Source: a virus (lineage: Duplodnaviria; Caudoviricetes). Taken from it: 63,719 nucleotides of DNA. Both the position numbers and the translations under genes were made by a program. This document shows, one piece after another, positions 4,710 to 55,404 of the stretch. The stretch covers positions 1-63,719 of IMG/VR virus record IMGVR_UViG_3300027969_000100, one strand, 5' to 3'. The first letter of the stretch is position 1; every line of letters begins with the position of its first letter. The notes beneath the pieces were generated by a model, which was not told the DNA's origin, ran no database searches, and saw only the letters and a program-made list of their open reading frames with translations.

Positions 4710-5372
4710 ATGGCCTGTATCTACAGACACATACGAAAAGATTTAAACGTACCATTTTACGTTGGGATAGGTAAAAACTTGAATCGAGCTTACTCAAAGT
4801 CTCACAGGAATAATCATTGGTTGTCTATAGTTCAGAAGACAGAATACGATGTTCACATTGTTTTTGATGAGATTGATTACGAATTTGCAAAAGAGAAAGA
4901 AAAAGAGTTTATTGATTTGTACAAAAGAAAAGTTGATGGTGGAACTCTTTGCAATATCACTAAGGGTGGAGATGGAGTCCTTGGAATAGTACATAGTGAG
5001 GAAGCCAGAAAAAAAATGGGTGAGCCAAATAAAGGCAAGACTATTTCAGAGTGGCATAGAAAAAGAATATCTGAGTTTCATACAGGAAAAGTAGTTGCTA
5101 AACAGACAAAAGAAAAGATGTCTGAAAAAATGTCTGGAGAAAACAACCACAGATATGGGGTAAATGCTTCTGAAGAAACAAAAAATAAAATGAGTGCTTC
5201 TGCAAGAAAAGGAGAGGATAATCATTCTTCTAAATTAATTGCATCAGACATATTAGAAATAAAAAAAATGAGTTCAGAAGGAATGAGCCAAAGAAAAATA
5301 GCTTTAAAATTTAATGTTACTAAGACTGCTATTTCTCGTATCATAAAAGGAATTACTTGGAAACACGTATAG
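4710..5372 (+). CDS. GIY-YIG homing endonuclease with NUMOD3-like repeats and C-terminal HTH
   Basis: CIYRH...FYVGIG...RAY, LCNITKGGDG, repeated HSEEARKKM/SEETKNKMS; free-standing between terL and portal. Confidence 0.85.
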   Translation: MACIYRHIRKDLNVPFYVGIGKNLNRAYSKSHRNNHWLSIVQKTEYDVHIVFDEIDYEFAKEKEKEFIDLYKRKVDGGTLCNITKGGDGVLGIVHSEEARKKMGEPNKGKTISEWHRKRISEFHTGKVVAKQTKEKMSEKMSGENNHRYGVNASEETKNKMSASARKGEDNHSSKLIASDILEIKKMSSEGMSQRKIALKFNVTKTAISRIIKGITWKHV

Positions 5373-22451: not shown

Positions 22452-25400
22452 ATGGAAGAACAACTATTAAAAGATTACGTAGCAACATACTTAAATCCTA
22501 AGTATAATGGTGATTGGGATTTAGTTAATTCAAAGTTCCCTGAGTTATCTGGACTTGACAAGCAATTGTTAAAAGACTATGTAGCAACGTATACAAATCC
22601 AAAGTATAATGGAGATTGGGATGTGGTAAACTCAAAATTCCCAGAGTTATTTCCAGCAGGTAAGTCTGGTGCAGAAAGTCCTATGGCTATTCAGACTGCA
22701 CAAGAACAGCCAGTAAAAAAAAAAGATACGGCATCACCATTTGTGGATGGTGGTTCGGAGCTTACAAGATTTGATCCTGCAAGTGGGCAGGTTGTACAGG
22801 AGACTCCTGCGTTCACTCAGCCTAAGCCTGAAGTAAAGATACCTGAGCAGAAGCTACCTGCACGTACTGAGTTTCAGTTCCAGCCAGGAAAGCCTTTGCC
22901 TGAGCAGAAGACAGCACCACTTCCAAAGTTTGTTGAGGAGCAGTTATCTGCTGTTAAACCAGAGCTTATAGGAAAGACTGAAGAGAATGTTGTTCCACAA
23001 CTTAAGTATCAGTTTGGTCCACTAGGATTTAAGTTCGAGCAGACTAGAGCTGGAGATTACATGATGGCTACATCTCCATCGGGAGAGTCTATTTATATTT
23101 CTTTAGACGTTGTAGATAACAAGGATAGGGAGACAGAAGCCAATAAGCTAAACGCATTTTTAAGAAAGGGTGCCACCACTGTAAAGAACTTATCTACTTT
23201 ACAGAAGCAGTACACAGATGCCAACAAGAAGATTGTGTCTCAGAAGGAACTTGATGAGTCTCTGGCAAGCATCAATGCAGAGGAAACCAAAATCATGGCA
23301 AGGAATGCTGAGTTTGTTAAGGCACAGAATAAACTAGAGGCAGAGAAAGCACAACTAGAAAGTGTTCCTGTACAGCAAAGAAACAATCCAGCTTACATTG
23401 CTAGAGTAAATGACTTTATTGAAAGAGCTGACCAGTTCAGTGGTGAGTTCCAGACATTCGCAAAAGATGCTGAAGACTTATCAAAGAGAGGACAGCAATT
23501 AAATAAGTCTATAGGTAAGTATACTGAGATGAAGGCTGAGCAAGGCACATGGTATGGTGCTGCTTTAAATGCCTTTGCCAATAAGTCTTATTATGAAATG
23601 GCTAAAGGTTTATCCGGTGTAGCTGTTGACTTTATAGGTGAGGTGATTTCAGCTACTGGATTACCAATAATGAGTCCAGAAAACTATGAGAAAACATTCA
23701 TCGAGCAAGCCAAGAAAGAAGGAATAAATGTTACTGAAGGTGAGGACTTTATATCATTGGCTAATAAGCTTGACCCTGAAACTCTTGCTAAGATAGAGAA
23801 TAGAGTTATAGATGCAGGGAAGAAAAGTGTAAAGGGAGAAGTTGTAGGTGGTTTAGATAAGGCTTCTAAGATGATTATGGAATCGTCAGGGGTTTCTCCT
23901 GAGTACTATAGATCAATTGAAGAAACATTTGTTGGAGGTGCCTTACTCGGTGCGTTGACATCTATACCAGCTATGGCAGGTGGCCCAGTAACACGAACAA
24001 TATTAATGGGATCTCAAGTACTCTCAGGACTAGATACTGAGATGGCTAACAATCCTGAGTTCGCAGATATATCAGAAAATGAAAAGCTATTAGTTAAGGC
24101 TCCAATTGCAGTAGCTGTTGGTGTACTAGAAAGCCTTGGTCTAAGTAACTTATTAAAGCAGAAGGGCTTCTTAAATGGCATAGTGCTTAAGGCACTTGGT
24201 AAGGTAGGGACAGGTGCAAGCTATAAGACATTTGGTGAGGTAATTAAGAATGAGGTAGAGAGTGCTGTAGACAGAGGAGCATTGACTCTAGGTGCTGGCT
24301 TCCTAGCTGAAGCTGAAACAGGAGCACTACAGGAAGTAGCTGACATAGGTATTAAAGAAATCTATAACATGGCTAAGGAGAAGGAGATGTTTGATACTCC
24401 TGATTCTGTAGTTAAGTTTATAGAACAGGTAGGCAAGGCTGGTTTACAGGAAGGTATTGGTGCAGGTGTACTTAGTGTACCCGGATCTGTATCTGCTGCC
24501 TATACTGGCAAGGGATTCTTAGGCATGGATGATGCTCAGTTTGCTATGTTTGAAAAGATGGCAAATGACTCGAACATTCAGAAGGGATTTGTTGCTAGGC
24601 TCAAGTCCAGAATTAATAACGGTGAGATTACTGCTGCTGAAGGCAAGGACATACTTAATAATTACAGAAATTCTGTAGGCTTATTCAACTCATTGCCTGA
24701 GAACCTTGACATGCAAGGGAAGAAGGAGGCAATGAACTTGCTTAAGGAGAAGCGTGACTTGGAACGTCAGATTGATGGCAAGGATCAGGCATTAACTACT
24801 CCTCAGCGTAATAGAGTAAACGAAATAAATCAACAACTTACTAAACTATCAGAAGATGCCATTCAAGAGCAAGCAGCAGGTCAAGTACCTGTACAGCCAG
24901 GAGCCACAGTTAGCCAAGAAGTGGCGCAAGGAGAACCCCAAGCAGAACCTCAAGGCGTTGCCGAAGAAGGTCAAGTCCAAGAAGTAGCACCTGTATCTCC
25001 AGCTGTATCTCCAGCTATATCTCCTATTCAAGAAGCAACTCCACAAGTAGACTTTACTGAAGCTGAAGTAAATGCGCTTTCAGATTTATTAGATAAGAGC
25101 GAGTCTGAAGGTAAGAATCTTCCTGAGGTATTCCAGCTAGAGACTACCACAGATAATGAAGGAAAGAAGCAGGTACTTGTAGAGTCAGCTACTAAGCTAA
25201 TGGAGACTGTTAGTGATGACTTATCATCTACTTCAAAGCCTACTAATGCTCCAACTATGGAGACAACCCCAATAGTTATAACTGAGAATACAGAACTTAC
25301 CAATAAGGTATCAAGATTCCCACTTGTTGATCTCATAAAGAAGAAGATAAATCTTGTTATGGCTGATCAATTAAAGGTAGGGGATGGGTTTATGGGGGGT

Positions 25401-28400
25401 CCATTGTTCCCACTTATTGATGGGATTTTTGGTAAGGCAGCATGGGCATCTATAAATCTAGATGCTGCTAGAAAAATTGTAAGGGGTGCTATAAATGGTG
25501 ACTATAGTGTGGTGTTTAATATGAATCCAACTGCTGTTGATTCAAACACTGCATTTATGGATACCTTTATTAAGAAATTAAATGAGGCTGGCATAAAAGA
25601 AAATGTGCTTGTTGAATTAAAATCTTATGTGAAGGACAAGAAGTTCGGAAAGAAGACAGATCAGATAAGAAAGATTGCTGAGACATCAAATACAATTGAT
25701 GAGTTCTCTGAAAAATTATCTGAACTAGATGTCGATACCATATCTGATTTCGTAAAGAAAATTATTCCTTCAAAGAGTGTGGTTGCAGAGACCGCAATCG
25801 GAAAGATTCTACAGGCTCAGAACATTACTCAAGAAGATATTAGAGGTGAGATATCAGAGCAGCTTGCTAAGGACTTGCCTATGGGGGCAATGACTATGGT
25901 CCTTAAGATCACAGATGCAAATGGTAATCCTGTTACTGAAAAGAATATTGACGATGCGATTATAACTCCTGAGCAGCAGAAGGCTGAAGGAATCCCATCA
26001 CATAGGAATTATCCTTTCTATGTTAGAGGTACAGCCCTTGGTATACTAGATAGCACAGTTCCTTTTTGGAATATGTCAAAGGCTGCAATGAGTACTATCA
26101 ATGCAAAGGTAGCCAAGGTAATAAGAAACAATGAGGGTAAGGCATACAGTGCTTCACAGGCTCGTGCTGCTGCTATGAGGTCCGCTTCAATGAAGGCTTC
26201 TAAAGCATTCACTACTCAGGCTCCTACTAAATCTACTTATCAACAATTTATAGAGAGGTTGTCAAAGGCAATACCTTCTGTTGAGGTAGTGACATCTCAA
26301 AAACAATTCGATGATCTTCTTACAAACTTGAATGCTAAGTCCTTGGCTACAAAGAACCAGAAGATTTATGGAGCAGTTCTAGATGGTAAGCTATATCTTA
26401 ATCCATCTCTTGAGAATTTTAACACACCTATCCACGAGTTCGCTCACGTTTGGACCAATACTATTAAGGAACTATCCCCTGAGATTTATCAAAAGGGTAT
26501 AGAACTTATTAAAGGATCTGACTATGTTTCTCAGATAGAAGCAAGTAAAGACTACAAGCGTATTACTGATAAGATGAAAAAGGATGGTGCAACTGATCAA
26601 GAGATAAGCGATTATATTCTTGAGGAGGCACTGGCTACAGCTATTGGAGATAAGGGTGAGTCATTTGCTACAGCTGCTCAGCAGAGAAACTTTAAGAACT
26701 GGCTTAATGATTTATTTGCATTCATTAAAAAGCTTACCGGTATATCAAAGTTAACTCCAGAGCAGATACAGAATATAAGCTTGGATGATTTCTTGAATAG
26801 TGTTGTAGTTGACCTATTGTCTGAGAACAAGTTATTTAAAAATGCAGAGGTAAATAATCTGAGCAATCAGCTACAGCTCATGGCGAAGCCTGACTTGAAG
26901 GCAGATGATATTGTAAAGATTGGACTTGCTAATGGGTTTTCTGTTCCAGCTATAAAGGAGCTGCTAAGCAGAAGAGGATTCACTGAGCAGGCTATCAATG
27001 AAGCATTGGGCAAGCAGACACCTGCCGCTAAGAAGGTTGAGGTAACTGAGGAGTTTGCTCCAGGGTATGACCGAATGATTGGTCAGCTTGAGGGTGTGGT
27101 TGAGAAGTCACTGAAGCGTGGTACCACTCAGGCTAAAGCAATGGAGAATGCCATCAACTATCTCCAGGGTACTAAGGTATACGAGAACGCTACTGATGTA
27201 CAGCGTGAGACTATGGTCCGTGATGTGAACAAGCGATTCAAGAAGCGTGAGAAGCGTGCTCCTAGTGCTAAGAAAGTATTGGGACAGAAGAAAGATGTTG
27301 TAACAATCACCGTTGATTTAGCTAAGGAGAGAGATAGAATAATTAAGGAACAGATAAAGCAAGCTAAGGAAGTTACTGGTGACCTTAACGAGAAGAGAGC
27401 AGCATTGGCTAATTCAATACGTTTGTTTGAAGATGGAGGAGTTATAACGACTGCTCAAACTAAGACCATAGTAAATAGAATTAGTAAGGTCAATCTAAAT
27501 AATCCTATCATGGTTGATAGGTTGCTTGCATACATTGAGAAGGTATTCGACAATGCCAACTATGCAGCTGACATGACTGAGCTAAGAAAGCTACAACGTC
27601 AGGCAAGAACCAAGAAGCATACATCAATGAAGGACTTTGTTGATAGGTTTACTTTTATTAATCCAGAGCTTATCCCACTTGATAGACTACAAGACTACAA
27701 GGAAGCACTTGACTTCTTGAATAATAGAACTCCTTCTTATGCTAGGATGAATGAAATGCTTCCTGAGATTGAATCTTACGAATTATCTGAAAAGTTTGAT
27801 TCTGTTAAGACTATAGATGACATTAAAGAAAAATACAAAGGAATAAGATTAAACAAAGTAGAAAGTGTTGAAGAATACGTTGCACTTATAAAGGATATAA
27901 ACTCAATAAAGAGAAAGTTATATCAGTTACTTGAGAATGAAGTAATCAGTCAACAGGAATATGATATTCAGGTTACTATTATTGGTGAAGACCAATTAAA
28001 AGTAGAAAATAATTATGCAGTACAAATTACTAAAATAAAGAAGGACTTAATCGCTGAGATAAATAAGCAGCGACCAAAGACTAACCCTGAATTTACTAAG
28101 GAAGAAAATGATTTAATCAAAGAATACCTAGAGCTTAACGATGCTGACCTTGAGAGTCTATCTCCTGAGGACCTGTTTGTACTAAATGATTTGCTTGAGA
28201 ACGTAAGCAATGGAGAGATTGACTACTATAGATTTAAGAACGTAGTGTCAAAGGCAGCCAATAACAAGGCTGGTGTTGAGGTTGGTAAGCAGTTAAAAAC
28301 GTCTAAGTTAAGTCTTGGGTCAGCAGAATTGAGAAAGAAAATGGCTCAGTTTGAAAGCTCATTCTGGGAGGGGCTTCTTGGTTTAGGTAGAGCTACATCA

Positions 28401-30800
28401 GGTCCACTACAGAAGTTTATTATCTCTCCTTTTAACAGAGCAATTGGATCATACGAAAAGTTTTTAAGAGATGGATACAATGATTTCTTAAAGCTTAAGA
28501 AGAAGTATAAGATTGATGACTCTAAGTTGTTTAAAAGCACCAAGCAAATGCAAAAGATAGGTATGCTAACCACATACCTTCAAGAGTACATGGCTCAGTT
28601 TGACCCTAAGAACAAAGGCATTAAGGATATTGGTAAACGTGATTGGTTCAAGGAAATCTTAGCTACCGAAACCATGAGAGATGACTACTCACCTGAAGAG
28701 CTTAAGATTATTGAAGAGATTCATGAGAGTCTACCTAAAGATAAGGATGGTAATGTAGATCCTAAGGCGGTATACGATAGCTACATAGCTAACGATGGTA
28801 AGTTCTTTACCAAGAATGAGAAGGGATTCTTTGATGCAGTAATGGAGTGGAAGAAGAATAACTCAACATCAAAGCAGAAGGCAGCTAATGAGATGAGTGG
28901 TAATGCATTCAAGGAGATTCCTTTCCATATGCTTAGATCAAGATACTCTGGACAAACTTCACAAATTACTCCATCAACATCTGGTGATAATGGTATGATC
29001 CGAATCAAGGCTGGTACCGGTAAGGAGAGAGCAAGCGAAGCAGTAGGTGCAATCAATACAAACTTTGAGAAGCTATTCATCAAAGGACTTGAGCAAACTG
29101 GTAGAGATTACTTCTTGTCTAAGACACTGAAGGATATCAACAACGTGTTGGCATCTGCTAAAAAAGAACTTAATGGAGATAAGGACCCTCTAGTTAAGGC
29201 TATATCTTATACGCTATCTGATGCATTGGCTTACGAGTTCAGTGATACAGCTAGTCAGAACATATTGAAGAGATTGGTTCAGGCAAGAGCTGCCATGACA
29301 TTGTTCGATCCTATCAGAGCAGGAGTTGAATTTACATCTACTCTACTATCCTTTGGTCTAAGAGCCAGAACATTATCTGGATACAAGAATTTATTCGGTA
29401 GTCAGGGAGAGATGAGAAATCTACTTGAGTTCACGGATAGCCCATTAAGACTACGTCAGAATATCAACAATGCAATTGATATCAATGATGGAAGGATTGA
29501 ACCACAGGGTATGCTTATGAAGTGGACTAGCTTCCTATCTGGTCTACCAGAAAGAACGATGATGGTTACATCATGGATGCCAACATTCACTAGTGAGTTT
29601 CAGAATATCACAAAGGAGAAGTTCGACATGAAGAAGTTTAATGATAGCGAAGCATACAGAGAGAAGTATGGTAAGGCAATCAAAGAAGCTTCTGCTGTGG
29701 CTGATGCTCAGACTGAGAAGATTGTTGGTCCAACTACAAAGGCAGGACAGAGAAGAGACATTGTAATTTTCCCTGGTAAAACTGTTGGTAGAGACACGGT
29801 GTCTGGCCAGATCCTTGGCTTCTTTAGTAACTATCCTTATCGAGAAGTAACTGAATTTGTAAATGGATTTAAGGAAGCAGGTGAGGTATTAAAGAAGGCT
29901 GATACAGTAGAAGCAATCAGTCAGTTGCAAAAGCCACTGGGTATTGCATTGAACGTAGCTGCTTATGGATTCTTGTCATCAGTAGTATACGCCTCCAGAT
30001 TAATTCTTCTTGGAGACGATGATGAAGAGGAGAGAGGCAACAAGTTACTTGAGGAGTTGATGACTGCTAAAGGATTCATTGAGGAGACAGCGGCAAATGC
30101 AGCAGCATTAGCGGCAAGTAAGTACGCAGGTGGAGGTAGAGCTATTCTACAAGTACTAGGTACACTTGGGATTATGATGACTGACAATGAGGAAACAAAG
30201 GCTACAATTAAAAAGATGCTAAAGGGAAGTGTGTATGTAGATCCATTACCAACTCAGAAGTTAACTGGATATGGTACCGCTGACAAAGTAAATACAGCAA
30301 TACTAAAATACATCCCTCAGTTTGTGGTTCTTAGTAATGTAATTATAGATGGCTTAGGTGGATTGAATGAAATCAAAGCTATATACGACAAGGTAGAAAG
30401 CAAAGGAGTGAATGCACTAACAGAAGATGAGGAGCTAAGAGTACTAGCATTGAGCGTTATGTTTACTGCAACTCAATTGTACTTAAACTATAAGGGATCA
30501 TCGTTGCCATCTTATAACACCTTGAAGGCAGGAATGAAAACAGTAAAGGAGGAAGCAGGAGTTGCTGATATATCTGCTGGAAAAGTACCTGCTAAAAAGA
30601 AATCATCTAGTGGTGGTGGAGGCAGCAGAGCCAAGACAATGAACAAGACTGACCTGAAGAAATATAACCGTGAGTTATATGATCAGATGTATGGTAAGGG
30701 ATCTGCTACTTATGAGATAGAGCAGGAGATAAAAGCCTTCGAGAAGGAACAACGAGAGTTTAAAAAGGATATCAAGGATAGAGTTTTTGGTGGGGACTAA
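22452..30800 (+). CDS. Giant (2782 aa) internal virion/polyvalent protein with zincin-like metallopeptidase motif
   Basis: LYLNP...TPIHEFAHVW...EEALATAIG; last gene of the structural operon; N-terminal 34-aa tandem repeat. Confidence 0.7.
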   Translation: MEEQLLKDYVATYLNPKYNGDWDLVNSKFPELSGLDKQLLKDYVATYTNPKYNGDWDVVNSKFPELFPAGKSGAESPMAIQTAQEQPVKKKDTASPFVDGGSELTRFDPASGQVVQETPAFTQPKPEVKIPEQKLPARTEFQFQPGKPLPEQKTAPLPKFVEEQLSAVKPELIGKTEENVVPQLKYQFGPLGFKFEQTRAGDYMMATSPSGESIYISLDVVDNKDRETEANKLNAFLRKGATTVKNLSTLQKQYTDANKKIVSQKELDESLASINAEETKIMARNAEFVKAQNKLEAEKAQLESVPVQQRNNPAYIARVNDFIERADQFSGEFQTFAKDAEDLSKRGQQLNKSIGKYTEMKAEQGTWYGAALNAFANKSYYEMAKGLSGVAVDFIGEVISATGLPIMSPENYEKTFIEQAKKEGINVTEGEDFISLANKLDPETLAKIENRVIDAGKKSVKGEVVGGLDKASKMIMESSGVSPEYYRSIEETFVGGALLGALTSIPAMAGGPVTRTILMGSQVLSGLDTEMANNPEFADISENEKLLVKAPIAVAVGVLESLGLSNLLKQKGFLNGIVLKALGKVGTGASYKTFGEVIKNEVESAVDRGALTLGAGFLAEAETGALQEVADIGIKEIYNMAKEKEMFDTPDSVVKFIEQVGKAGLQEGIGAGVLSVPGSVSAAYTGKGFLGMDDAQFAMFEKMANDSNIQKGFVARLKSRINNGEITAAEGKDILNNYRNSVGLFNSLPENLDMQGKKEAMNLLKEKRDLERQIDGKDQALTTPQRNRVNEINQQLTKLSEDAIQEQAAGQVPVQPGATVSQEVAQGEPQAEPQGVAEEGQVQEVAPVSPAVSPAISPIQEATPQVDFTEAEVNALSDLLDKSESEGKNLPEVFQLETTTDNEGKKQVLVESATKLMETVSDDLSSTSKPTNAPTMETTPIVITENTELTNKVSRFPLVDLIKKKINLVMADQLKVGDGFMGGPLFPLIDGIFGKAAWASINLDAARKIVRGAINGDYSVVFNMNPTAVDSNTAFMDTFIKKLNEAGIKENVLVELKSYVKDKKFGKKTDQIRKIAETSNTIDEFSEKLSELDVDTISDFVKKIIPSKSVVAETAIGKILQAQNITQEDIRGEISEQLAKDLPMGAMTMVLKITDANGNPVTEKNIDDAIITPEQQKAEGIPSHRNYPFYVRGTALGILDSTVPFWNMSKAAMSTINAKVAKVIRNNEGKAYSASQARAAAMRSASMKASKAFTTQAPTKSTYQQFIERLSKAIPSVEVVTSQKQFDDLLTNLNAKSLATKNQKIYGAVLDGKLYLNPSLENFNTPIHEFAHVWTNTIKELSPEIYQKGIELIKGSDYVSQIEASKDYKRITDKMKKDGATDQEISDYILEEALATAIGDKGESFATAAQQRNFKNWLNDLFAFIKKLTGISKLTPEQIQNISLDDFLNSVVVDLLSENKLFKNAEVNNLSNQLQLMAKPDLKADDIVKIGLANGFSVPAIKELLSRRGFTEQAINEALGKQTPAAKKVEVTEEFAPGYDRMIGQLEGVVEKSLKRGTTQAKAMENAINYLQGTKVYENATDVQRETMVRDVNKRFKKREKRAPSAKKVLGQKKDVVTITVDLAKERDRIIKEQIKQAKEVTGDLNEKRAALANSIRLFEDGGVITTAQTKTIVNRISKVNLNNPIMVDRLLAYIEKVFDNANYAADMTELRKLQRQARTKKHTSMKDFVDRFTFINPELIPLDRLQDYKEALDFLNNRTPSYARMNEMLPEIESYELSEKFDSVKTIDDIKEKYKGIRLNKVESVEEYVALIKDINSIKRKLYQLLENEVISQQEYDIQVTIIGEDQLKVENNYAVQITKIKKDLIAEINKQRPKTNPEFTKEENDLIKEYLELNDADLESLSPEDLFVLNDLLENVSNGEIDYYRFKNVVSKAANNKAGVEVGKQLKTSKLSLGSAELRKKMAQFESSFWEGLLGLGRATSGPLQKFIISPFNRAIGSYEKFLRDGYNDFLKLKKKYKIDDSKLFKSTKQMQKIGMLTTYLQEYMAQFDPKNKGIKDIGKRDWFKEILATETMRDDYSPEELKIIEEIHESLPKDKDGNVDPKAVYDSYIANDGKFFTKNEKGFFDAVMEWKKNNSTSKQKAANEMSGNAFKEIPFHMLRSRYSGQTSQITPSTSGDNGMIRIKAGTGKERASEAVGAINTNFEKLFIKGLEQTGRDYFLSKTLKDINNVLASAKKELNGDKDPLVKAISYTLSDALAYEFSDTASQNILKRLVQARAAMTLFDPIRAGVEFTSTLLSFGLRARTLSGYKNLFGSQGEMRNLLEFTDSPLRLRQNINNAIDINDGRIEPQGMLMKWTSFLSGLPERTMMVTSWMPTFTSEFQNITKEKFDMKKFNDSEAYREKYGKAIKEASAVADAQTEKIVGPTTKAGQRRDIVIFPGKTVGRDTVSGQILGFFSNYPYREVTEFVNGFKEAGEVLKKADTVEAISQLQKPLGIALNVAAYGFLSSVVYASRLILLGDDDEEERGNKLLEELMTAKGFIEETAANAAALAASKYAGGGRAILQVLGTLGIMMTDNEETKATIKKMLKGSVYVDPLPTQKLTGYGTADKVNTAILKYIPQFVVLSNVIIDGLGGLNEIKAIYDKVESKGVNALTEDEELRVLALSVMFTATQLYLNYKGSSLPSYNTLKAGMKTVKEEAGVADISAGKVPAKKKSSSGGGGSRAKTMNKTDLKKYNRELYDQMYGKGSATYEIEQEIKAFEKEQREFKKDIKDRVFGGD

Positions 30801-31642: not shown

Positions 31643-32566
31643 TGACATACTTCATTGTCAAATTCTAATTCATATTCATAAAAATATGGACAGGCCCACC
31701 TAGGATTATCACACTTAAGCTTTACCATTGTTGATTTGTAAGATCCAACTTGTAATACTGTAGCCATCCCTGAACGCTTTGTTTTTACTCTATCTCCAAC
31801 TTTCAATTTATCAAATGGTGTCATTTCACTATCTCTTTAAGTTGACTCCAAATAGCTTCGCTTAAATCTCCCCAATACATTTCGCACTTGCCATCTTTGA
31901 TGGGTGGGTCAATGAAATAATATTGATAGTCATCAGGCTTAGCTGTGAATCGGTAGCAGCTTTCTTTGTAGGGACAATTTGTCCCCGGGCACATTGTTAT
32001 GTCAGGGCTCATAGGTTTTCTAGTTCTTGTTTAACTTCTTTCCAATAATAATTCATTGTCCCAAAATCATATTTATTAATATTTTTTATTGAATGTAATA
32101 CTTCATCTACTGCTATCAATGCACATTCTTTTCTAACTTCTCTAAATCCAAATTGAAATTTCTCATTTTTAAGATAGCGATTAACTAACTCTTCTGCTTT
32201 TTCTTTAGGTGTCATCTCCGTAGGTATCTTTGTAGTACTGTTCCCCTGATTTCCCATTGTCTGGATACCCATCTGAGTAGCCTTCTTCATAACTATCTTT
32301 AATCTGCTCCTTCTCCATTTCTTTGGCTTTATTGCATTCCTCTCGATAAGCCTTTGGTATTTCAGGATAATCTTCTGCAATTTTCTTAATCAACCAATCT
32401 ACTGCTGTCTGTTTCATAGCTTATCAATTAAATTGTTTAAGTTCTCATCTGATGGGAAGTTATCCTTGTCAGTACTCCAATACTCTAGGTACCTGTCCCT
32501 GTGTACAGCGTACCACCTCTGTGTGTATTCATTCCAATGAAATACGTAGTTCCAAATCTTTTCCAT
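31639..32566 (-). CDS. Cluster of five small hypothetical phage ORFs (31639-31824, 31821-32012, 32009-32215, 32205-32417, 32414-32566)
   Basis: Overlapping co-oriented ORFs (e.g. MSPDITMC..., MTPKEKAEEL..., MKQTAVDWL...). Confidence 0.6.
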
Positions 32567-47035: not shown

Positions 47036-48637
47036 ATGGAACCTAAAGATTTATTTTTAGCCCAGGAGGGCAGACTAAAGTTAATTTCTGGCATCAAGAA
47101 GATTGCCGGAGCGGTCAAGAGTACGTTGGGGCCATATGGCAACACGGTACTAATTGAGAGTCCTAATCACACGCATGGTATTACTGTAACTAAAGATGGG
47201 GTGACTGTCGCTAAGGCTGTTGACCTACTTGACCCTGTGGAGAACCTTGCGGTTAAGATGATGAAGGAGGCGGCTGATAGAACGGCTACTGCTGCTGGTG
47301 ATGGCACTACTACTGCCATAGTGTTGACAGAGGGGTTGGTACTTGGATGGTTGGAGCATATTGGCACTGAGCAGTTAAATAATACTGAGGTGCTACGCAA
47401 CATATCTGAGCTGAGCACTAAGGTGATTGAGGGGTTGAAGAAGAAGAGTAAGAAGGTCACTAACTCAATGCTGCTTGACGTGGCAACTATCTCTGCGAAC
47501 AATGACAGTCACATAGGTCGAATCATTGCTGATGTGTACAAGGAGGTGGGGAAGAATGGCATAGTAACGGTGGAGCGAAGCCAGACTGCTGACACATATG
47601 CTGAGACCACTAGGGGGTTAAAGATTGACAGGGGGTACACAAGCCCACTGTTCATCAACGATCAGAGTAGGGACGAGTGCGTATTTGAGGATGTACTGGT
47701 GCTGGTGGCTGACATTGAGATAAGTAATGTCTTGCAGATTGAGAACGTGTTGAAGCCAATCATACAGGAGGGGAAGAAGCTACTGATCGTATCTCCATGC
47801 CACGTGAACGTGGTGAATACCTTGGCGGCAAACGTGATGAAGAGTAACCTAAAGATGTGCGTGGTTCAACCACCGAGCTTCGGGTACCGACAGCATGAGC
47901 TGATGCAGGACCTGGCGGTGAGTGTTGGGGCCACATACTTCAGTGAGAAGACCGGGGATGACCTGAGTCAGATCACTATTGCTGACCTAGGGCATGCAGC
48001 CAGAGTGGTGGTTGGCAAGGACAAGACCATAATCCTCAAGTCAGACCTCAAGCTCGACACTGCAAAGGTCGAGGAGCGAGTGGCACAGCTATGGCAGGCA
48101 CATAAGATTGCTAAGAAGAAGGTTGACAAGGACCACCTGTTGGAGCGAATCGCCTCCCTTACGGGAGGGATAGGTGTGATATACGTAGGTGGGCAGACTG
48201 ACCTAGAGCAGAAGGAGCTGTACGACCGTGTTGACGATGCGGTGTGTGCGGTACGATCCGCTCTGGAGGAGGGCATACTACCAGGTGCAGGCAAGGCACT
48301 GCTTGACGAGAGTGCTGTGATCAGAAGAGACCTATTATTTAACTTAAGCAAGGAGTACAATGCTGCTGTTGAGATACTATCCAATGCGATGATGGCACCA
48401 TTCCAGCAGATCCTAGCTAACGCTGGCCTCAAGCCAAGTGACGTATACAAGGAGGCGATGCCTGTTGGGCACGGGTACAACCTAAAGACGGGGCAGATGG
48501 GTGACCTAGTACAGATGGGTGTGATTGACCCACTAAAGGTGACACGCAGTGCGTTACAGAACGCTGTGAGTGTAGCGACAACTATATTGAGTACTAACGC
48601 CATCATAACTATGGCACGATCATACGAGACTAGATAA
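47036..48637 (+). CDS. groEL: Chaperonin GroEL (Cpn60)
   Basis: TLGPYG, VTKDGVTVAK, AGDGTTTA, DRGYTSP, GILPGAG, GVIDPLKVTRSALQNAVSVA. Confidence 0.95.
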   Translation: MEPKDLFLAQEGRLKLISGIKKIAGAVKSTLGPYGNTVLIESPNHTHGITVTKDGVTVAKAVDLLDPVENLAVKMMKEAADRTATAAGDGTTTAIVLTEGLVLGWLEHIGTEQLNNTEVLRNISELSTKVIEGLKKKSKKVTNSMLLDVATISANNDSHIGRIIADVYKEVGKNGIVTVERSQTADTYAETTRGLKIDRGYTSPLFINDQSRDECVFEDVLVLVADIEISNVLQIENVLKPIIQEGKKLLIVSPCHVNVVNTLAANVMKSNLKMCVVQPPSFGYRQHELMQDLAVSVGATYFSEKTGDDLSQITIADLGHAARVVVGKDKTIILKSDLKLDTAKVEERVAQLWQAHKIAKKKVDKDHLLERIASLTGGIGVIYVGGQTDLEQKELYDRVDDAVCAVRSALEEGILPGAGKALLDESAVIRRDLLFNLSKEYNAAVEILSNAMMAPFQQILANAGLKPSDVYKEAMPVGHGYNLKTGQMGDLVQMGVIDPLKVTRSALQNAVSVATTILSTNAIITMARSYETR

Positions 48638-48640
48638 GAT

Positions 48641-48874
48641 ATGGAGACAATACTAAACCCATTTGGGCACGGTCAGGTGACAAAAGTCGTTGACGAGAAC
48701 CGTAAGAGTTGGGTAGAATACCTAACTACATCAAAAGTGTTTGATGAGAATGAGTACTACGTGCTGTTCGAGGATGGCCTGCTGGTGAAGAAGGGTCGGT
48801 CTAAGTTCGGTACAAGCCAATACATCAGAGGAGAGCGGTTCAAAAAATTCATAGGGCACTATGAGACTGCTTAA
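48641..48874 (+). CDS. Hypothetical protein
   Basis: ORF directly downstream of groEL. Confidence 0.55.
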   Translation: METILNPFGHGQVTKVVDENRKSWVEYLTTSKVFDENEYYVLFEDGLLVKKGRSKFGTSQYIRGERFKKFIGHYETA

Positions 48875-48957
48875 GAGCTGGGCGATAACCGTGGGTCTAG
48901 CGATAGTGTTCGCATTGCTAGTGATATGGTGGTATGAGACTAGTAAAATAAATTAAG

Positions 48958-49218
48958 ATGGAGGCACCATTTGCAATTAAGGTAGGCGAGGTACTAGAGA
49001 AAATTGAGCGTATGCTCATTGAGAAGAACCGCAAGTACGGCAACTCAGCACTAGAGCCGATTGGTGTGTTCTCTCAGTTGTCCGCAAAAGAAGGACTACT
49101 GATCCGAATCGATGACAAGCTTAAGCGAATCAAGAACGGCAGCCTTGAGAAGGACGATGAGGACGTGGTGAACGACTTGATTGGGTACCTAGTGCTGTTA
49201 AAAATTCATGCAAAATGA
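48958..49218 (+). CDS. DUF1599-like (nucleotide-modification-associated) protein
   Basis: KNRKYGNS...RIDDKLKRI...DVVNDLIGYLVLL. Confidence 0.7.
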   Translation: MEAPFAIKVGEVLEKIERMLIEKNRKYGNSALEPIGVFSQLSAKEGLLIRIDDKLKRIKNGSLEKDDEDVVNDLIGYLVLLKIHAK

Positions 49219-49404
49219 GTGAGATATCATTCATTGTGGTTTACATTATGCGTAAATGTAGTAGATATACTACTATATTACGGCACTCTTTGCCATAAGC
49301 TGCCAAATGTCGACAAAATGGAGACATTTGGAGACTAATGTTGTCGATTTTTGGGACGAATATTTGTAAAATTGTGACAACCAATTCGGATAATTTCCGA
49401 ATTG
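49214..49404. repeat. Array of adjacent, mutually unrelated inverted repeats
   Basis: Six clear and two weak palindromes back to back; see findings. Confidence 0.75.
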
Positions 49405-49490
49405 TACAATAAAAAATGACCCAAGAGCAGATCCTACGGTATGCTACTTGGGTACTTATAGGTTTACATATTGGGAACTTTTGTTAACCT

Positions 49491-50027
49491 TTAGAATAAC
49501 TTTTTGCTTATACCTATCTGGTGAATATTCTGTAGTGGCTGGTACTGGTACTCAAACATGTACTTGTTGTCCAAGTAGGCAACTTTTGCGCCTGGTTGTA
49601 GCAGAGAGTTGACCGATGCGCCTAGATATAATCCTTTGCTCTTCTTTATAATTGTCTTAGTCTCTGTGTTCGTAACCGTATTGGTTACCACAGGGATTTT
49701 AAAATCGTTTGTAACGCTCATTTTAAGTACCTCTCCGAGGACTTCTCCACTAACGTAGGTGTTACCATACTCGAAAGGAGTCGTGGTGCTGAACAAGCTT
49801 ATAGTAGGCTTATATTCTTCTAGAACTGTATCCCTAACAAACTGTGATTTTATCCACATTTTCGGCACATAAACTGTGTCCTTGACCTCGATAATCAAAG
49901 TGTCCGTATTTGTCACGCTTTCAAATTTATAAACCGTTTCTTCTTCAGGCTTTGGCATTATAATAAATGCTAAAATTATTCCTGCTATAAAAGAAATGAT
50001 TGATGTAAGTATTCTCTTGTCTTCCAT
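49491..50027 (-). CDS. N-terminally membrane-anchored protein (possible spanin-like)
   Basis: N-terminal TM, DTL/DTV repeats, beta-rich C-terminus ending in F. Confidence 0.45.
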   Translation of the reverse strand: MEDKRILTSIISFIAGIILAFIIMPKPEEETVYKFESVTNTDTLIIEVKDTVYVPKMWIKSQFVRDTVLEEYKPTISLFSTTTPFEYGNTYVSGEVLGEVLKMSVTNDFKIPVVTNTVTNTETKTIIKKSKGLYLGASVNSLLQPGAKVAYLDNKYMFEYQYQPLQNIHQIGISKKLF

Positions 50028-50248
50028 TATTGTTCGATGTATAAATTGTCTTGCTCTAATATTTTTCTTAACTCTTCACGGCACCATTTATAAGCTTGGT
50101 AAGTCTCATCAGATAATTCTTTGTACTTCATTTCAGAACGAAGCAATTGGTCAAAGTCCCAGATGGCACTTTTGTAATTATGGCCATTTATGGCTGCCTG
50201 GAAGTCTTTGTTATCTTCAGGCAAATCAAATTCTAGTACTGCTTTCAT
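50027..50248 (-). CDS. Hypothetical phage protein
   Basis: MKAVLEFDLPED start; overlaps both neighbours. Confidence 0.6.
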   Translation of the reverse strand: MKAVLEFDLPEDNKDFQAAINGHNYKSAIWDFDQLLRSEMKYKELSDETYQAYKWCREELRKILEQDNLYIEQ

Positions 50249-51126
50249 AGGGGAAATTTACAACTGTCTACTAATAACTCATAATTTCTTACTTCTTTCC
50301 TGTGTGTCTCCTTACCAGATAGGGTAAGTATCCTTCCACCAGTAGGTTTTATAGGGGCTCCTCGCTCAACATGCCAGCCAAAGGCTCCATCTTGGTACTC
50401 TTCCTTATAACTTCCTGTTATAGCTAGGTGAATCTGCTTGTGAACTATCTCATGTACATGCTTGCCAGGGTTAAACTGGATAGTATCACGTACATCGTTA
50501 CGACTAGAGTTCTCATGTATGTGTCCCATGATAAATATGTCCATGTTCTCGTACATCTCTAGGGCTCTTGTCAAGTTTATAGCTCCCTTTGTAACTATTC
50601 CACCCCCACCAGAACCATGGAAGTACTTCAAATTTTTTGACATGTAGGTATTGCTACCTAGATGATGCTTAATGACTAGCCATCCCCCGTATCCACCAGT
50701 ATAAACCTCTGTCTTGTTGGTATAGTTGAGCAAGTCAACGAATCTTTGTAGAGGATCAGTCTCTAGATTCTTAATGATTGCAGTCTCGTGATTGCCATAT
50801 CCAATAACTGTGAGCAGATGTGCGTAAGGAGACCAATAATCTACTGCGTCTTCAATAACAGCGTCTATATAATTTGCTTTATTGTGCTCAGGAAGAATAT
50901 CCTTCTTGTTTCTTCTTGGATCATACTTTCCCTGCATCAAGCAGAAGAAATCACCATTGATTAAGATTGGGATATTGTGTTTTTTGCAGTACTCCAGGTG
51001 ATCTTTTAGTTGATCTCTATCACACTTTGGGTTGTCCCAGTGGATGTCCGATAGTAAAGCTATTTTTGTCTCTGATTTTTCTAGATCAATGACGTGAACA
51101 TTCCTGCTAACCTTTCTTAGATTCAT
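50245..51126 (-). CDS. Calcineurin-like metallophosphoesterase
   Basis: SDIH, NGD, GNHE, FHG, GHIH motifs. Confidence 0.85.
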   Translation of the reverse strand: MNLRKVSRNVHVIDLEKSETKIALLSDIHWDNPKCDRDQLKDHLEYCKKHNIPILINGDFFCLMQGKYDPRRNKKDILPEHNKANYIDAVIEDAVDYWSPYAHLLTVIGYGNHETAIIKNLETDPLQRFVDLLNYTNKTEVYTGGYGGWLVIKHHLGSNTYMSKNLKYFHGSGGGGIVTKGAINLTRALEMYENMDIFIMGHIHENSSRNDVRDTIQFNPGKHVHEIVHKQIHLAITGSYKEEYQDGAFGWHVERGAPIKPTGGRILTLSGKETHRKEVRNYELLVDSCKFPL

Positions 51127-51330: not shown

Positions 51331-51588
51331 ATGAAAGCTATAGGAAAAAATATTGTAATCAAATCAATTGACGAGGAAGTAAAGACTTCTTCAGGATTAG
51401 TCCTATCTGGTGAGGACACCAACCAATTACGCTACAAGCGTGGAGTAGTAATCAACTCAGGGACAGAGGTAAGTTCAATCAAGCCAGGAGACAACGTGTA
51501 CTACGACAAGGCGAACAGCTATGTGATGATCATCAATGATGAGCACTGCGTAATTATTCAGGAACGTGACGTAGTTCTTGTCCTGTGA
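51331..51588 (+). CDS. groES: Co-chaperonin GroES (Cpn10)
   Basis: MKAIGKNIVI...KTSSGLVL...GVVINSG...IKPGDNVYY...IIQERDVV. Confidence 0.85.
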   Translation: MKAIGKNIVIKSIDEEVKTSSGLVLSGEDTNQLRYKRGVVINSGTEVSSIKPGDNVYYDKANSYVMIINDEHCVIIQERDVVLVL

Positions 51589-54434: not shown

Positions 54435-54655
54435 AAAAATTATTTGATTGGTTAAAAGGCTTCTTGTCTGAAAATGGAGAAGCATCTTCTAAAAGATTTG
54501 TTGGAGTATTTGCTGCAATAGCTTTGTGCTATACGCTTTATGCCAACCATGATTCGGCTAACGAACCATCAGAAGCTTTAGTTTATTCGGTTGCTGCTTT
54601 ATCTGCTGCTGCTTTAGGTATTACGGCAGCTGAGAAGATATTCAAGAAGGAATGA
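54431..54655 (+). CDS. Putative holin (2 TM)
   Basis: 74 aa, SSKRF followed by two hydrophobic helices and a charged C-terminus; upstream of the endolysin. Confidence 0.6.
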   Translation: MKKLFDWLKGFLSENGEASSKRFVGVFAAIALCYTLYANHDSANEPSEALVYSVAALSAAALGITAAEKIFKKE

Positions 54656-55404
54656 AGAACTTAAGCAAGGAGGAACTACTAAGTCGAATGGAGGCAATTA
54701 ATCGTAGCAATGCGATTATTTACTTTGACTTAAATGGTTTTATCCTTGGAGTAAACGCTATCTTCTTAGAGGCTATGGGCTTTGCTGAAGATGAGCATGA
54801 TAAGCTGATTGGAAAGCACCATTCGATTTTTGTCAGCTACGAATATTCTAAGTCTGAAGACTATACAAAATTCTGGGAAATGCTTCGGGCTGGAAAATTT
54901 TACGAAGGTGAATTTGAAAGAAGAAAGATAGATGGTAGACCTATTTATTTGCAGGCTACATACAATCCTATCTTTGACGAAAGCGGTACTATCACTAAGA
55001 TAATGAAGATAGCTACCGACATTAGCCAAACTATTGTAAGTAAAAATAAGATTGGCGAACTATCTAAAAGTTTGCAGGCTGAGTTAGAAAACTCAAATAA
55101 GTTAAGGGCAGCAATTGAGATTGAAAAGGATGCAGCTGTTAATGACTTAGATGCTACCATTAAGAAAAGTCAAAACGAGCTCATTAAAGTAATTGTAAAG
55201 TCTGCCTTGTTCGTAATTATGAGTGTTGGATTTATTACAACGATAATGTACTCGTTTGCTATTCTATCGGATAAGGATACGCAAATCATTGGATCTACTT
55301 GGTCAAATATGTTTTCGGTTTTATTGACGAATGCCTTCTCTATTGTCGGCACAATCATGGGAATTAAGTACGCAACTTCAGAAGATAAAAAAAATAAGGA
55401 ATGA
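54652..55404 (+). CDS. PAS/PAC domain-coiled coil-2TM membrane protein
   Basis: AINRSNAIIYFDLNG...GKHHSIFV...FWEMLRAG...GEFERRK...YLQATYNPIFDESG...KIATDIS matches chemoreceptor-type PAS; two C-terminal hydrophobic helices. Confidence 0.85.
   Translation: MKNLSKEELLSRMEAINRSNAIIYFDLNGFILGVNAIFLEAMGFAEDEHDKLIGKHHSIFVSYEYSKSEDYTKFWEMLRAGKFYEGEFERRKIDGRPIYLQATYNPIFDESGTITKIMKIATDISQTIVSKNKIGELSKSLQAELENSNKLRAAIEIEKDAAVNDLDATIKKSQNELIKVIVKSALFVIMSVGFITTIMYSFAILSDKDTQIIGSTWSNMFSVLLTNAFSIVGTIMGIKYATSEDKKNKE

Follow-up and report, generated by a model that had tools for sequence, protein, structure and literature searches.

Between two convergent genes of a Caudoviricetes phage, one palindrome follows another in a short stretch of DNA. 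The genome, IMG/VR record IMGVR_UViG_3300027969_000100, is 63,719 bases long, represents one whole viral genome (CheckV completeness, 100%) and is referred to here in its full length as the window. The gene on the left, p86, and the gene on the right, p178, are both conserved, and the hairpin units between them are numbered U1 to U9 (Table 1). The original prediction, made from the sequence alone, regarded eight palindromes at this locus as a collection of operator mimics that titrates various host regulators or defence proteins once it has been amplified by phage replication, and it offered a multi-hairpin RNA as an alternative. Here, we describe the cluster as a composite one: turnover hairpins are piled around a single conserved look-alike of a protein-binding site, formed by the core of U7 and a box to its left. 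This element resembles the putative operators of abiE, a type IV toxin-antitoxin operon of abortive infection.

All eight predicted palindromes are present in the sequence where they were expected, including two that had been called weak and indeed are. Their density is far above that of shuffled sequence, a comparison that had been proposed as a check. When perfect stems of at least 5 bp were counted in 49214–49404 (191 nt) and in 2000 dinucleotide shuffles of it, the segment had 12 hairpin centres (2.1 ± 1.4 in the shuffles) and a summed stem length of 71 bp (11.4 ± 7.6), and none of the 2000 shuffles reached either value. It has two stems of at least 8 bp against 0.05 in the shuffles (P = 0.0005), and none of the 1589 other 191-nt segments of the phage genome attains 71 stem bp. 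As RNA, 49205–49500 is predicted to fold with −88.9 kcal/mol on the + strand (z = −6.77) and −73.4 kcal/mol on the − strand (z = −5.49); on either strand, none of 200 shuffles is as good. The flanking genes converge (48958–49218 on the + strand and 49491–50027 on the − strand), as had been said, and the palindromes are mostly free of genes, although the gene-free stretch proper is 49219–49490 (272 nt) and the p86 stop codon falls inside U1. The description of the units as AT-rich and lacking a U tail holds for U1 to U7, but a ninth hairpin just outside the interval first considered, U8, has a T-run on the − strand. U8 alone qualifies as an intrinsic terminator; the stems of U1 to U7 are AT-rich and have no T-run on either strand, which is unusual for this phage because elsewhere in its genome GC-rich hairpins with T-runs end the genes. 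As also predicted, the units are not CRISPR repeats: there is no direct-repeat family within 49150–49520.

In a family of freshwater phages, two conserved genes that converge enclose a hypervariable slot, and the cluster lies in it. The p86 protein belongs to phrog_1485 (unknown function; E 9e-16) and has 229 relatives in viral contigs. Slots were collected from the best 80 of these relatives together with 31 p178 loci, contigs fetched twice being collapsed; of the 111 loci, 100 have p86 and p178 in convergent orientation. Counting the window, there are 75 distinct versions of the slot, which range from 0 to 1047 nt in length and may be empty or contain a tRNA gene, an amidase gene, small open reading frames (ORFs) or hairpins alone.

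The U7 core and the putative operators of abiEi

The pattern TCGG-N7-CCGA, the centre of U7, is found in 59 of the 75 slots; its four-base arms are invariant and its spacer always consists of seven AT-rich bases. Outside these bases the arms vary among the phages (ATTCGGA, AATCGGA, TATCGGA or AACTCGGA). The core stays unchanged where the identity of p178 has dropped to 62–70%, and where the slot is shortest it spans the stop codons of both genes. The phage genome has one copy of it. Such invariance in the absence of covariation points to recognition of the sequence rather than of a shape. Judging from the slot sequences, the only widely conserved part of the cluster is TGTAAAAT-N10-AATTCGGA-N5-TCCGAATT, extended by N10-AGTTyACA on the right side where U8 is missing.

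What could recognize such a site? The original prediction had proposed comparing each unit with Bacteroidota genomes, and for U7 this comparison was fruitful. When each bacterial species was represented by one genome, the pattern AATTCGGA-N5-TCCGAATT was found at no fewer than 120 loci, and in 20 of these at least 120 listed loci the identical palindrome lies before an abiEi gene, the N-terminus of AbiEi being encoded within 150 nt downstream (19 at E < 1e-5 and one at 0.005). Names are displayed for 12 of the 20, all of them Bacteroidota: Ferruginibacter (2), Lacibacter, Ginsengibacter, Daejeonella, Cyclobacteriaceae (2), Saprospiraceae, Haliscomenobacteraceae, Sphingobacteriales, Bacteroidia and uncultured Bacteroidetes. 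Two Bacteroidota genomes, G001 and G002, each have two copies of the palindrome 62–63 bp apart and no other in the genome, and the reversed control sequence gave no match. The pair directly precedes a gene for a 212-amino-acid AbiEi (PADLOC PDLC02230; E 2.5e-75 in G001 and 1.7e-73 in G002), which in G002 is followed by an AbiEii gene (Pfam PF08843 and PADLOC); the G001 contig ends past abiEi. A sample of 401 Bacteroidota genomes included 32 in which AbiEi homologues were found. The genes of the nearest homologues have WAATCGGA-N5-TCCGATTW pairs, and those of more distant ones have long palindromes around ATCGA-N7-TCGAT. The AbiEi of Streptococcus agalactiae is a repressor of its own operon; two monomers bind cooperatively to a pair of 23-bp inverted repeats with 3 bp between them (PMC7319586). 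Since paired inverted repeats are bound there, the Bacteroidota palindromes, judged by their position, are very probably AbiEi operators.

The likeness extends beyond the palindrome used in the scan. The consensus of 27 host sites from the 20 AbiEi-linked loci is TGTnAAAT-N10-AATTCGGA-N5-TCCGAATT-N10-ATTTnACA. The window has TGTAAAAT, 10 nt and then AATTCGGA-TAATT-TCCGAATT, so that the inner 16 nt are identical to those of the host sites. On the right side, relatives without U8 read TCCGAATA-N10-AGTT[C/T]ACA, and their whole two-arm element of 57 bp is TGTAAAAA-N10-AATTCGGA-N5-TCCGAATA-N10-AGTTCACA. Two long inverted repeats are thus found in relatives without U8, and the window is contiguous for the left arm and the inner palindrome alone. 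U8 is an insertion between U7 and its right outer box; 15 of 74 relatives have it, but L005, L002, L003 and L007 do not. Beyond U8 stands GGTTTACA (49461–49468), which corresponds to the right outer box ATTTnACA.

The outer boxes of the 27 host sites were turned into a position weight matrix from which the inner 25 nt were excluded and which is therefore independent of the positions used in finding the sites. With this matrix the window scores 11.5, and the sites of the phage family (n = 55) have a median of 6.3. All positions of the phage genome have a mean of −30.0 and a 99.9th percentile of 1.8, which 39 of the 55 phage sites exceed; for the left flank alone, the window scores 8.5 against a genomic 99.9th percentile of 6.7. 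Listed host matches that have the same inner palindrome without AbiEi nearby (n = 101) have a median of −32.4, and their AT-rich subset (n = 27) has a median of −15.9 and a 90th percentile of 1.3, a value exceeded by 43 of the 55 phage sites. The AbiEi-linked host sites themselves (n = 27), scored with their own locus left out, reach a median of 21.5. The phage sequence therefore matches the sites before abiEi genes at positions that had played no part in finding those sites, and by these scores the phage element groups with the putative abiEi operators, though more weakly. At the level of sequence, this DNA looks like the two-arm operator before Bacteroidota abiEi-abiEii operons, and the likeness is probably more than a coincidence.

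The phage itself has no recognizable abiE. A six-frame search of the record with the PADLOC model and the G001 protein revealed no AbiEi, and a PADLOC search of 17 neighbouring ORFs found no AbiEi and, as its only match, an AbiA at chance level (E 0.004). No AbiEi stands beside the palindrome copies of viral contigs in 129 loci. The phage site lies between two stop codons rather than in an abiEi-abiEii promoter, and it is not the operator of a recognizable phage abiE module, because neither an AbiEi nor an AbiEii was found in the record.

The left outer box together with the inner palindrome, here called the extended motif, has 27 matches in the viral collection, for a chance expectation of about 0.1 by a rough hand estimate with an assumed collection size. 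Twelve of them are in the context of the phage family and 15 are outside it: nine (L396, L401–L404, L407, L409, L414 and L421) inside a peptidase-M20-like ORF, four (L405, L406, L410 and L411) inside a membrane-protein ORF adjoining UvdE, and two in intergenic DNA. A motif that occurs in 15 outside contigs, in some of them within coding sequence, would fit a site that acts independently of its position. In L400 (1200–1220), a very AT-rich contig, it stands between the gene for a 213-amino-acid protein with a weak winged-helix match and that for a DnaB-like helicase, and may there be an origin or an operator. L162, a 64-kb viral contig, has three tandem 68-nt repeats (868–1070), each with AATTCGGACTTAAGTCCGAATT. 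When loops of 3–8 nt are allowed, U7 itself has matches in at least 113 viral loci, nine of those listed being in the context of the phage family.

These occurrences bear on the idea that the conserved element serves a DNA-binding protein of the phage, for example one that functions in replication or partition or that controls what the slot carries, with the host AbiEi uninvolved and the resemblance to abiEi operators due to shared ancestry or shared specificity of two proteins. Conservation by sequence would agree with it, as would the extended motif in contigs outside the family, the one beside the weak winged-helix protein and the DnaB-like helicase included, and the phage encodes small proteins of unknown function and a helix-turn-helix protein resembling the C-terminal part of DnaA. 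Yet the searches just described found no AbiEi-like protein in the record or among the neighbouring ORFs, the genome has a single site, and that site lies at the 3′ ends of genes and not in a promoter. We therefore consider a site for a phage-encoded protein rather unlikely.

Turnover of hairpins in the slot

The occurrence of the units was determined with short-query blastn in 74 relatives. U1 to U5 are each found in 3 to 17 of them (U2 with U3 in six), and U7 is detected in this way in 35. Slot alignments reveal deletions of whole hairpins and arms that have been cut off. For example, the stem of U1 is weakened and the right arm of U3 is deleted in L003 and L009, and the right arm of U5 is cut off in L003 and L007. 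Conversely, L005 carries an extra hairpin that is absent from the window, and it is the loss of this hairpin that moved the p86 stop codon of the window into U1. In L003 and L009 the p86 frame extends 60–80 nt beyond that of the window; thus, insertions and deletions in the slot also remodel the C-terminus of p86. No unit has a second copy in the 63.7-kb genome. The proposed comparison with related phages therefore disclosed gain, loss and truncation of units, but only the U7 core is widely kept.

Loops are turned round as well. Compared with the window, L005, L002 and L009 have the 11-nt U5 loop in exact reverse complement, and among 29 types of 7-nt U7 loop there are four reverse-complement pairs against 1.45 expected (P 0.03). 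Arms are perfect in some lineages and mismatched in others. Template switching at inverted repeats has been described to yield both loop inversion and homogenization of arms (PMC8794818); an exact reverse-complement loop between otherwise identical hairpins, as in U5, is the feature shared with the published cases, which concern rRNA and yeast genes and not an intergenic slot of a phage. U1 to U5 may thus be made, homogenized, flipped and lost by template switching during replication and by deletions at the borders of cassettes. PeSL (promoter-early stem-loop) cassettes in the hyperplastic regions of T4-type phages offer another parallel (PMC4122927): they too are stem-loop-rich non-coding DNA bordering variable genes, and their regions differ between relatives by insertion, deletion and replacement, as does the slot described here. 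However, PeSLs are repeated across the genome and are thought to recombine with one another (PMC4122927), whereas each unit of the slot is single-copy, so that several similar copies per genome are not found, and no promoter was identified in the units.

The slot also exchanges genes. A 215-amino-acid amidase-like ORF is present in three slots (L004, L053 and L064) as a cassette cleanly bounded by TGTAAAATATCTTTAACCTTATC on one side and the core palindrome on the other; L051 lacks the gene but shares these borders. A tRNA-Thr gene was found in two of 51 loci scanned, namely as tRNA-Thr(TGT) at 3393–3465 of L064 and 2392–2464 of L073, and the sequence directly 3′ to it matches U4. In relatives, the U4 stretch thus stands after the tRNA-Thr gene (L064 and L073) or before the amidase gene, and in L004, where it adjoins the amidase ORF, it matches over 39 nt at 100%. 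A sigma-54 promoter in U4 was considered and rejected by eye, as the GG-to-GC spacing is 2 nt too short in comparison with the consensus. A small Cys-rich gene is represented by an overlapping frame in 31 slots, and words of that gene occur in 35–37 of the 75. It has a homologue at 31824–32012 (− strand) of the window, a Cys-rich gene of 63 amino acids (MSPDITMCPGTNCPYKESCYRF...); with a homologue in the slot of about 31–37 of 75 relatives, the same small gene occupies different positions in the family. There are several further families of small ORFs within the slots.

Some of the hairpins may descend from the palindrome itself. In relatives with a minimal slot, the equivalents of 49196–49213, which in the window are the last codons of p86 (TGTTAAAA plus ATTCATGCAA), make up the outer box and 10-nt spacer directly before the AATTCGGA palindrome; L397, L415, L408 and L417 read TGTTAAAA ATTCATGCA[A/T] AATTCGGA. 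In the window, U1 occupies the place that the inner palindrome has in these relatives. Because the 18 nt are kept and are followed by U1 in the palindrome's stead, U1 is suggested to derive from a copy of it; on this positional ground U1 may be a diverged copy of the inner palindrome, and the remaining hairpins may have begun as diverging copies in the same way. U2 holds GGTTTACAT, a repeat of the box at 49461–49469 (identity of 49238–49246 to U9 over 9 nt).

Can the rest of the array still be a collection of sites for different host regulators, as originally predicted? The decoy reading survives for one unit, U7 with the preceding weak unit that holds TGTAAAAT, where arms, spacing and outer boxes match abiEi sites. 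In its full form, in which every one of the eight palindromes imitates an operator for another host regulator or defence protein and all of these proteins are titrated by the array, it could also appeal to the words TGTAAA/TTTACA, which recur in several hairpins of the slot family (TTTACAAA in 36 and ATTTTACA in 34 of the 75 slots). However, U1 to U5 are confined to few relatives, where they are often truncated, deleted or flipped, and have no further copy in the genome. The U5 palindrome has 16 matches in the viral collection, two in the context of the phage family and 14 in varied other contexts. TGCCAAA/TTGGCA half-sites are neither enriched nor paired, and a regulon built on them was rejected. 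An array of eight different mimics is consequently very improbable. A mobile element as carrier of U7 and U5 was also rejected, the viral loci having varied sequence contexts.

Richness in hairpins is a property of the place and not of one sequence, because 24 of the 32 slots for which z-scores were calculated, though differing in sequence, fold better than shuffles (z ≤ −2 on the + strand), the window being the most extreme. This observation suits the main rival explanation, in which all units, U7 included, act in cis as RNA stem-loops at the junction of convergent operons, as barriers to 3′ exonucleases and read-through, and the abiEi likeness is a coincidence of AT-rich palindromes. The location between convergent genes, the straddling of both stop codons by U7 in minimal relatives and the true terminator next to it, U8, are all in keeping with such a role. 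So is the folding, which is strong for either strand and stronger for the + strand, as an RNA role would predict. By eye, one stem position each in U5 and U6 has changed on both sides: A-T in the window and L019 is C-G in L039 and L041 (U5; several other relatives have a mismatch there), and C-G in the window is T-A in L007 and L003 (U6). Nevertheless, RNAalifold, run on 10 of the 16 relatives sharing the U5–U7 block (L009, L041, L037, L096, L047 and L049 were omitted), gave −5.6 kcal/mol with a positive covariation term, none of 20 consensus pairs was compensated, and U5 and U7 were not picked; U6 is conserved in primary sequence in the 10 aligned relatives. The stems of U1 to U7 also differ from the GC-rich, T-tailed hairpins found elsewhere in the phage, the U7 core shows no covariation in 59 slots in spite of the divergence of the flanking proteins, and the match to the putative host operator extends beyond the stem to the outer boxes. 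We regard cis-acting RNA stem-loops as an unlikely explanation, to which we give more credit than to the other alternatives.

A free-standing gene for a structured non-coding RNA or a small peptide is the least probable explanation, and a very improbable one. The very low folding energy and a 47-codon frame with a TTG start at 49241–49384 (− strand) could suggest one. An Rfam search up to E 10, however, gave two matches at chance level (22.7 bits against a threshold of 100 and 10.8 against 65), a tRNA scan of the window found none, and the Bacteroidota-type −7 box TAnnTTTG, which precedes two phage genes inspected, is absent from the + strand within 48000–51000. In L002 and L003 the frame is reduced to 40 and 31 codons, respectively, which speaks against a peptide gene, and the multi-hairpin RNA once offered as an alternative fares no better, with no Rfam family, no compensated pair, loops that flip and units that come and go.

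Taken together, U1 to U5 are read as lineage-specific AT-rich hairpins of fast turnover at the borders of cassettes, the turnover being seen in the alignments and its route deduced from them; they give no sign of a sequence-specific role. At most they would serve as unspecific cis stem-loops in the 3′ region of two converging transcripts.

The phage genome and its setting

Table 1. Coordinates of the palindrome units and of the genes around them
Feature	Position	Strand	Remarks
GroEL	47036–48637	+	533 amino acids; phrog_5725, E 1e-132
p86	48958–49218	+	Conserved 86-amino-acid gene, the last of the rightward GroEL block; stop TGA inside U1
Last codons of p86	49196–49213		TGTTAAAA + ATTCATGCAA; window sequence, 18 nt
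U1	49214–49235		AATGAGTGA-N4-TCATTCATT; 8 of 9 Watson-Crick pairs plus one G·T; 9/74 relatives
U2	49240–49256		TTTAC-N7-GTAAA; 5 pairs
U3	49255–49279		AATGTAGTAG / CTACTATATT, core GTAGTA-N4-TACTAC; 6 perfect pairs, or 10-nt arms at 90%
U4	49278–49298		TTACGGCA-N5-TGCCATAA; 7 of 8 pairs; C·A on the + strand is G·T on the − strand; 3/74 relatives
U5	49294–49340		Long imperfect hairpin, core CCAAATGTC-N11-GACATTTGG; perfect 9-bp arms at 49303–49331; 17/74 relatives
U6	49340–49381		Stem GTTGTC/GACAAC; minimum free energy structure; conserved loop holds the left outer box; 14/74 relatives
Left outer box	49365–49372		TGTAAAAT; the inner palindrome follows after 10 nt, which is also the spacing of the putative host abiEi operators
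Inner palindrome	49383–49403		AATTCGGA-TAATT-TCCGAATT; core of U7 (49382–49404, perfect 9-bp arms)
U8	49411–49455	−	Ordinary intrinsic terminator of the leftward gene; stem ACCCAAG.../...CTTGGGT, then TTTTTT
U9	49457–49490		Conserved block by the p178 stop codon; holds GGTTTACA (49461–49468); 40/74 relatives
p178	49491–50027	−	Conserved 178-amino-acid gene, the last of the leftward block
Cpn10/GroES	51331–51585	+	85 amino acids; PF00166, E 1e-10

The terminase has 87 relatives among deposited phages, 68 from Flavobacterium and 15 from Cellulophaga phages among them, and those with named hosts infect Flavobacteriia; the best match (75%) is an uncultured phage from spring water. DNA matching the phage is present in freshwater and lake metagenomes, and a blastn search of 48900–49600 against 50,697 phage records gave no match. 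The genome encodes terminase, portal and large virion proteins, helicase/primase, exonuclease and methyltransferases, as well as Sak. The terminase gene is flanked by an HNH endonuclease gene (620–1072, +) and a NUMOD3/helix-turn-helix gene resembling those of homing endonucleases (4710–5369, +). A 2782-amino-acid ORF (22452–30800, +) has no PHROG or Pfam match, and a PAS-domain protein of 250 amino acids (54652–55401, +; E 6e-11) is unusual for a phage. The GroEL and Cpn10/GroES genes stand 2.7 kb apart and flank the slot and the leftward gene block on either side. A replication origin could not be placed by GC skew and was rejected as a candidate, the skew tracking gene direction only.

The p178 protein has a hydrophobic N-terminus (alignment of 18 sequences) and matches nothing in PHROG, Pfam or PADLOC; the idea that it is a hidden AbiEi was rejected, there being no BLASTP similarity. 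Metatranscriptome contigs from three runs cover portions of GroEL, or of p178 and the gene upstream of it, and none of them contains the slot. In an independent DNA run (X2), contigs that otherwise match exactly stop at 49371 and restart at 49445, that is, at the U7/U8 hairpins; this gap would fit strain differences or assembly trouble at palindromes.

AbiE as a possible target and comparison with known systems

AbiE is among the most widespread abortive-infection systems, and the table of a 2026 review lists its escape determinant in phage as unknown and its action as taking place after DNA replication (PMC13064643). As a whole, the explanation that we favour, turnover hairpins around an abiEi-operator look-alike bound by an AbiEi-type protein of the host, has in our estimate an even chance of being right. 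Its most likely mechanism would be as follows: an AbiEi-type winged-helix protein of the host would bind the site on the phage DNA. Every replicated phage genome would add one more site and draw the repressor/antitoxin from its own promoter, and expression of both abiE genes would consequently rise. Binding of the phage element by a host AbiEi-type protein is nearly a toss-up. The element is kept in most relatives, and binding is therefore argued to help the phage; we infer both the binding and its benefit. It is conceivable, though somewhat doubtful, that the element acts in the phage's favour against AbiE, and only tentatively can we propose how: the replicated operator copies of these phages of freshwater Bacteroidota would soak up the AbiEi repressor/antitoxin, so that the AbiE response is re-set or blunted. 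Mirror-wise, AbiE might sense infection through the titration of AbiEi by the phage element.

Several observations weigh against AbiEi binding. Besides the both-sided stem changes in U5 and U6 and the better folding of the + strand, which would favour an RNA, the phage site is single, unlike the paired sites of the closest host loci, and is not followed by abiEi. Its right outer box has been displaced by the U8 insertion in the window. The core is also dispensable, because 16 of the 75 relatives lack it as the pattern defines it. The outer-box median of the phage sites, 6.3, is far below the 21.5 of the host sites, and the 39 of 55 sites above the genomic percentile are not 39 independent observations, because the phage sites share descent. 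The match was found post hoc among at least 120 listed loci, which by a hand estimate is about the number expected by chance for 16 fixed bases. Nor need withdrawal of the antitoxin benefit the phage, because it could trigger the toxin as well as disarm it. Finally, binding to the phage element is a prediction from sequence.

The likeness of U7 to the abiEi operator nevertheless provides a testable link between a phage and AbiE defence, and if the favoured explanation is true, the element might be a double-stranded DNA decoy that engages a defence regulator, and so a counter-defence of a new kind, or else a signal read by AbiE. A search of the literature found no description of a phage carrying an operator look-alike that would serve a toxin-antitoxin or Abi regulator. 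Apart from this element the cluster is ordinary, if instructive, as a case of hairpins accumulating and turning over in a variable phage slot.

Phages are known to use nucleic-acid mimics against defences, such as the pseudo-ToxI antitoxin RNA and CRISPR-repeat mimics. In both, as possibly here, the phage carries a copy of a nucleic-acid component of the defence system itself. However, those mimics are RNAs that act on the effector, whereas the present element would act as double-stranded DNA on a repressor/antitoxin. Sites for a host DNA-binding protein in the non-coding DNA of phages of the virulent type have a precedent in the Spo0A boxes of the Bacillus phages phi29 and Nf (PMC2731898). 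In that case the protein is a developmental regulator, its binding and effect have been shown and its sites overlap promoters and origins (PMC2731898); in our case it would be a defence regulator and antitoxin, and the likeness comes from the sequence. Another counterpart is the abiEi operator. That of S. agalactiae likewise consists of two long arms in inverted orientation, with a short AT-rich spacer between them (PMC7319586), and the Bacteroidota sites share with the phage element the inner 8-nt arms, the 5-nt length of the spacer and the 10-nt distance to the outer boxes. The putative Bacteroidota operators, assigned by position, have stronger outer boxes than the phage element, and an abiEi operator lies before abiEi, whereas the phage site stands alone at the 3′ ends of two genes in a genome where no abiE genes were found.

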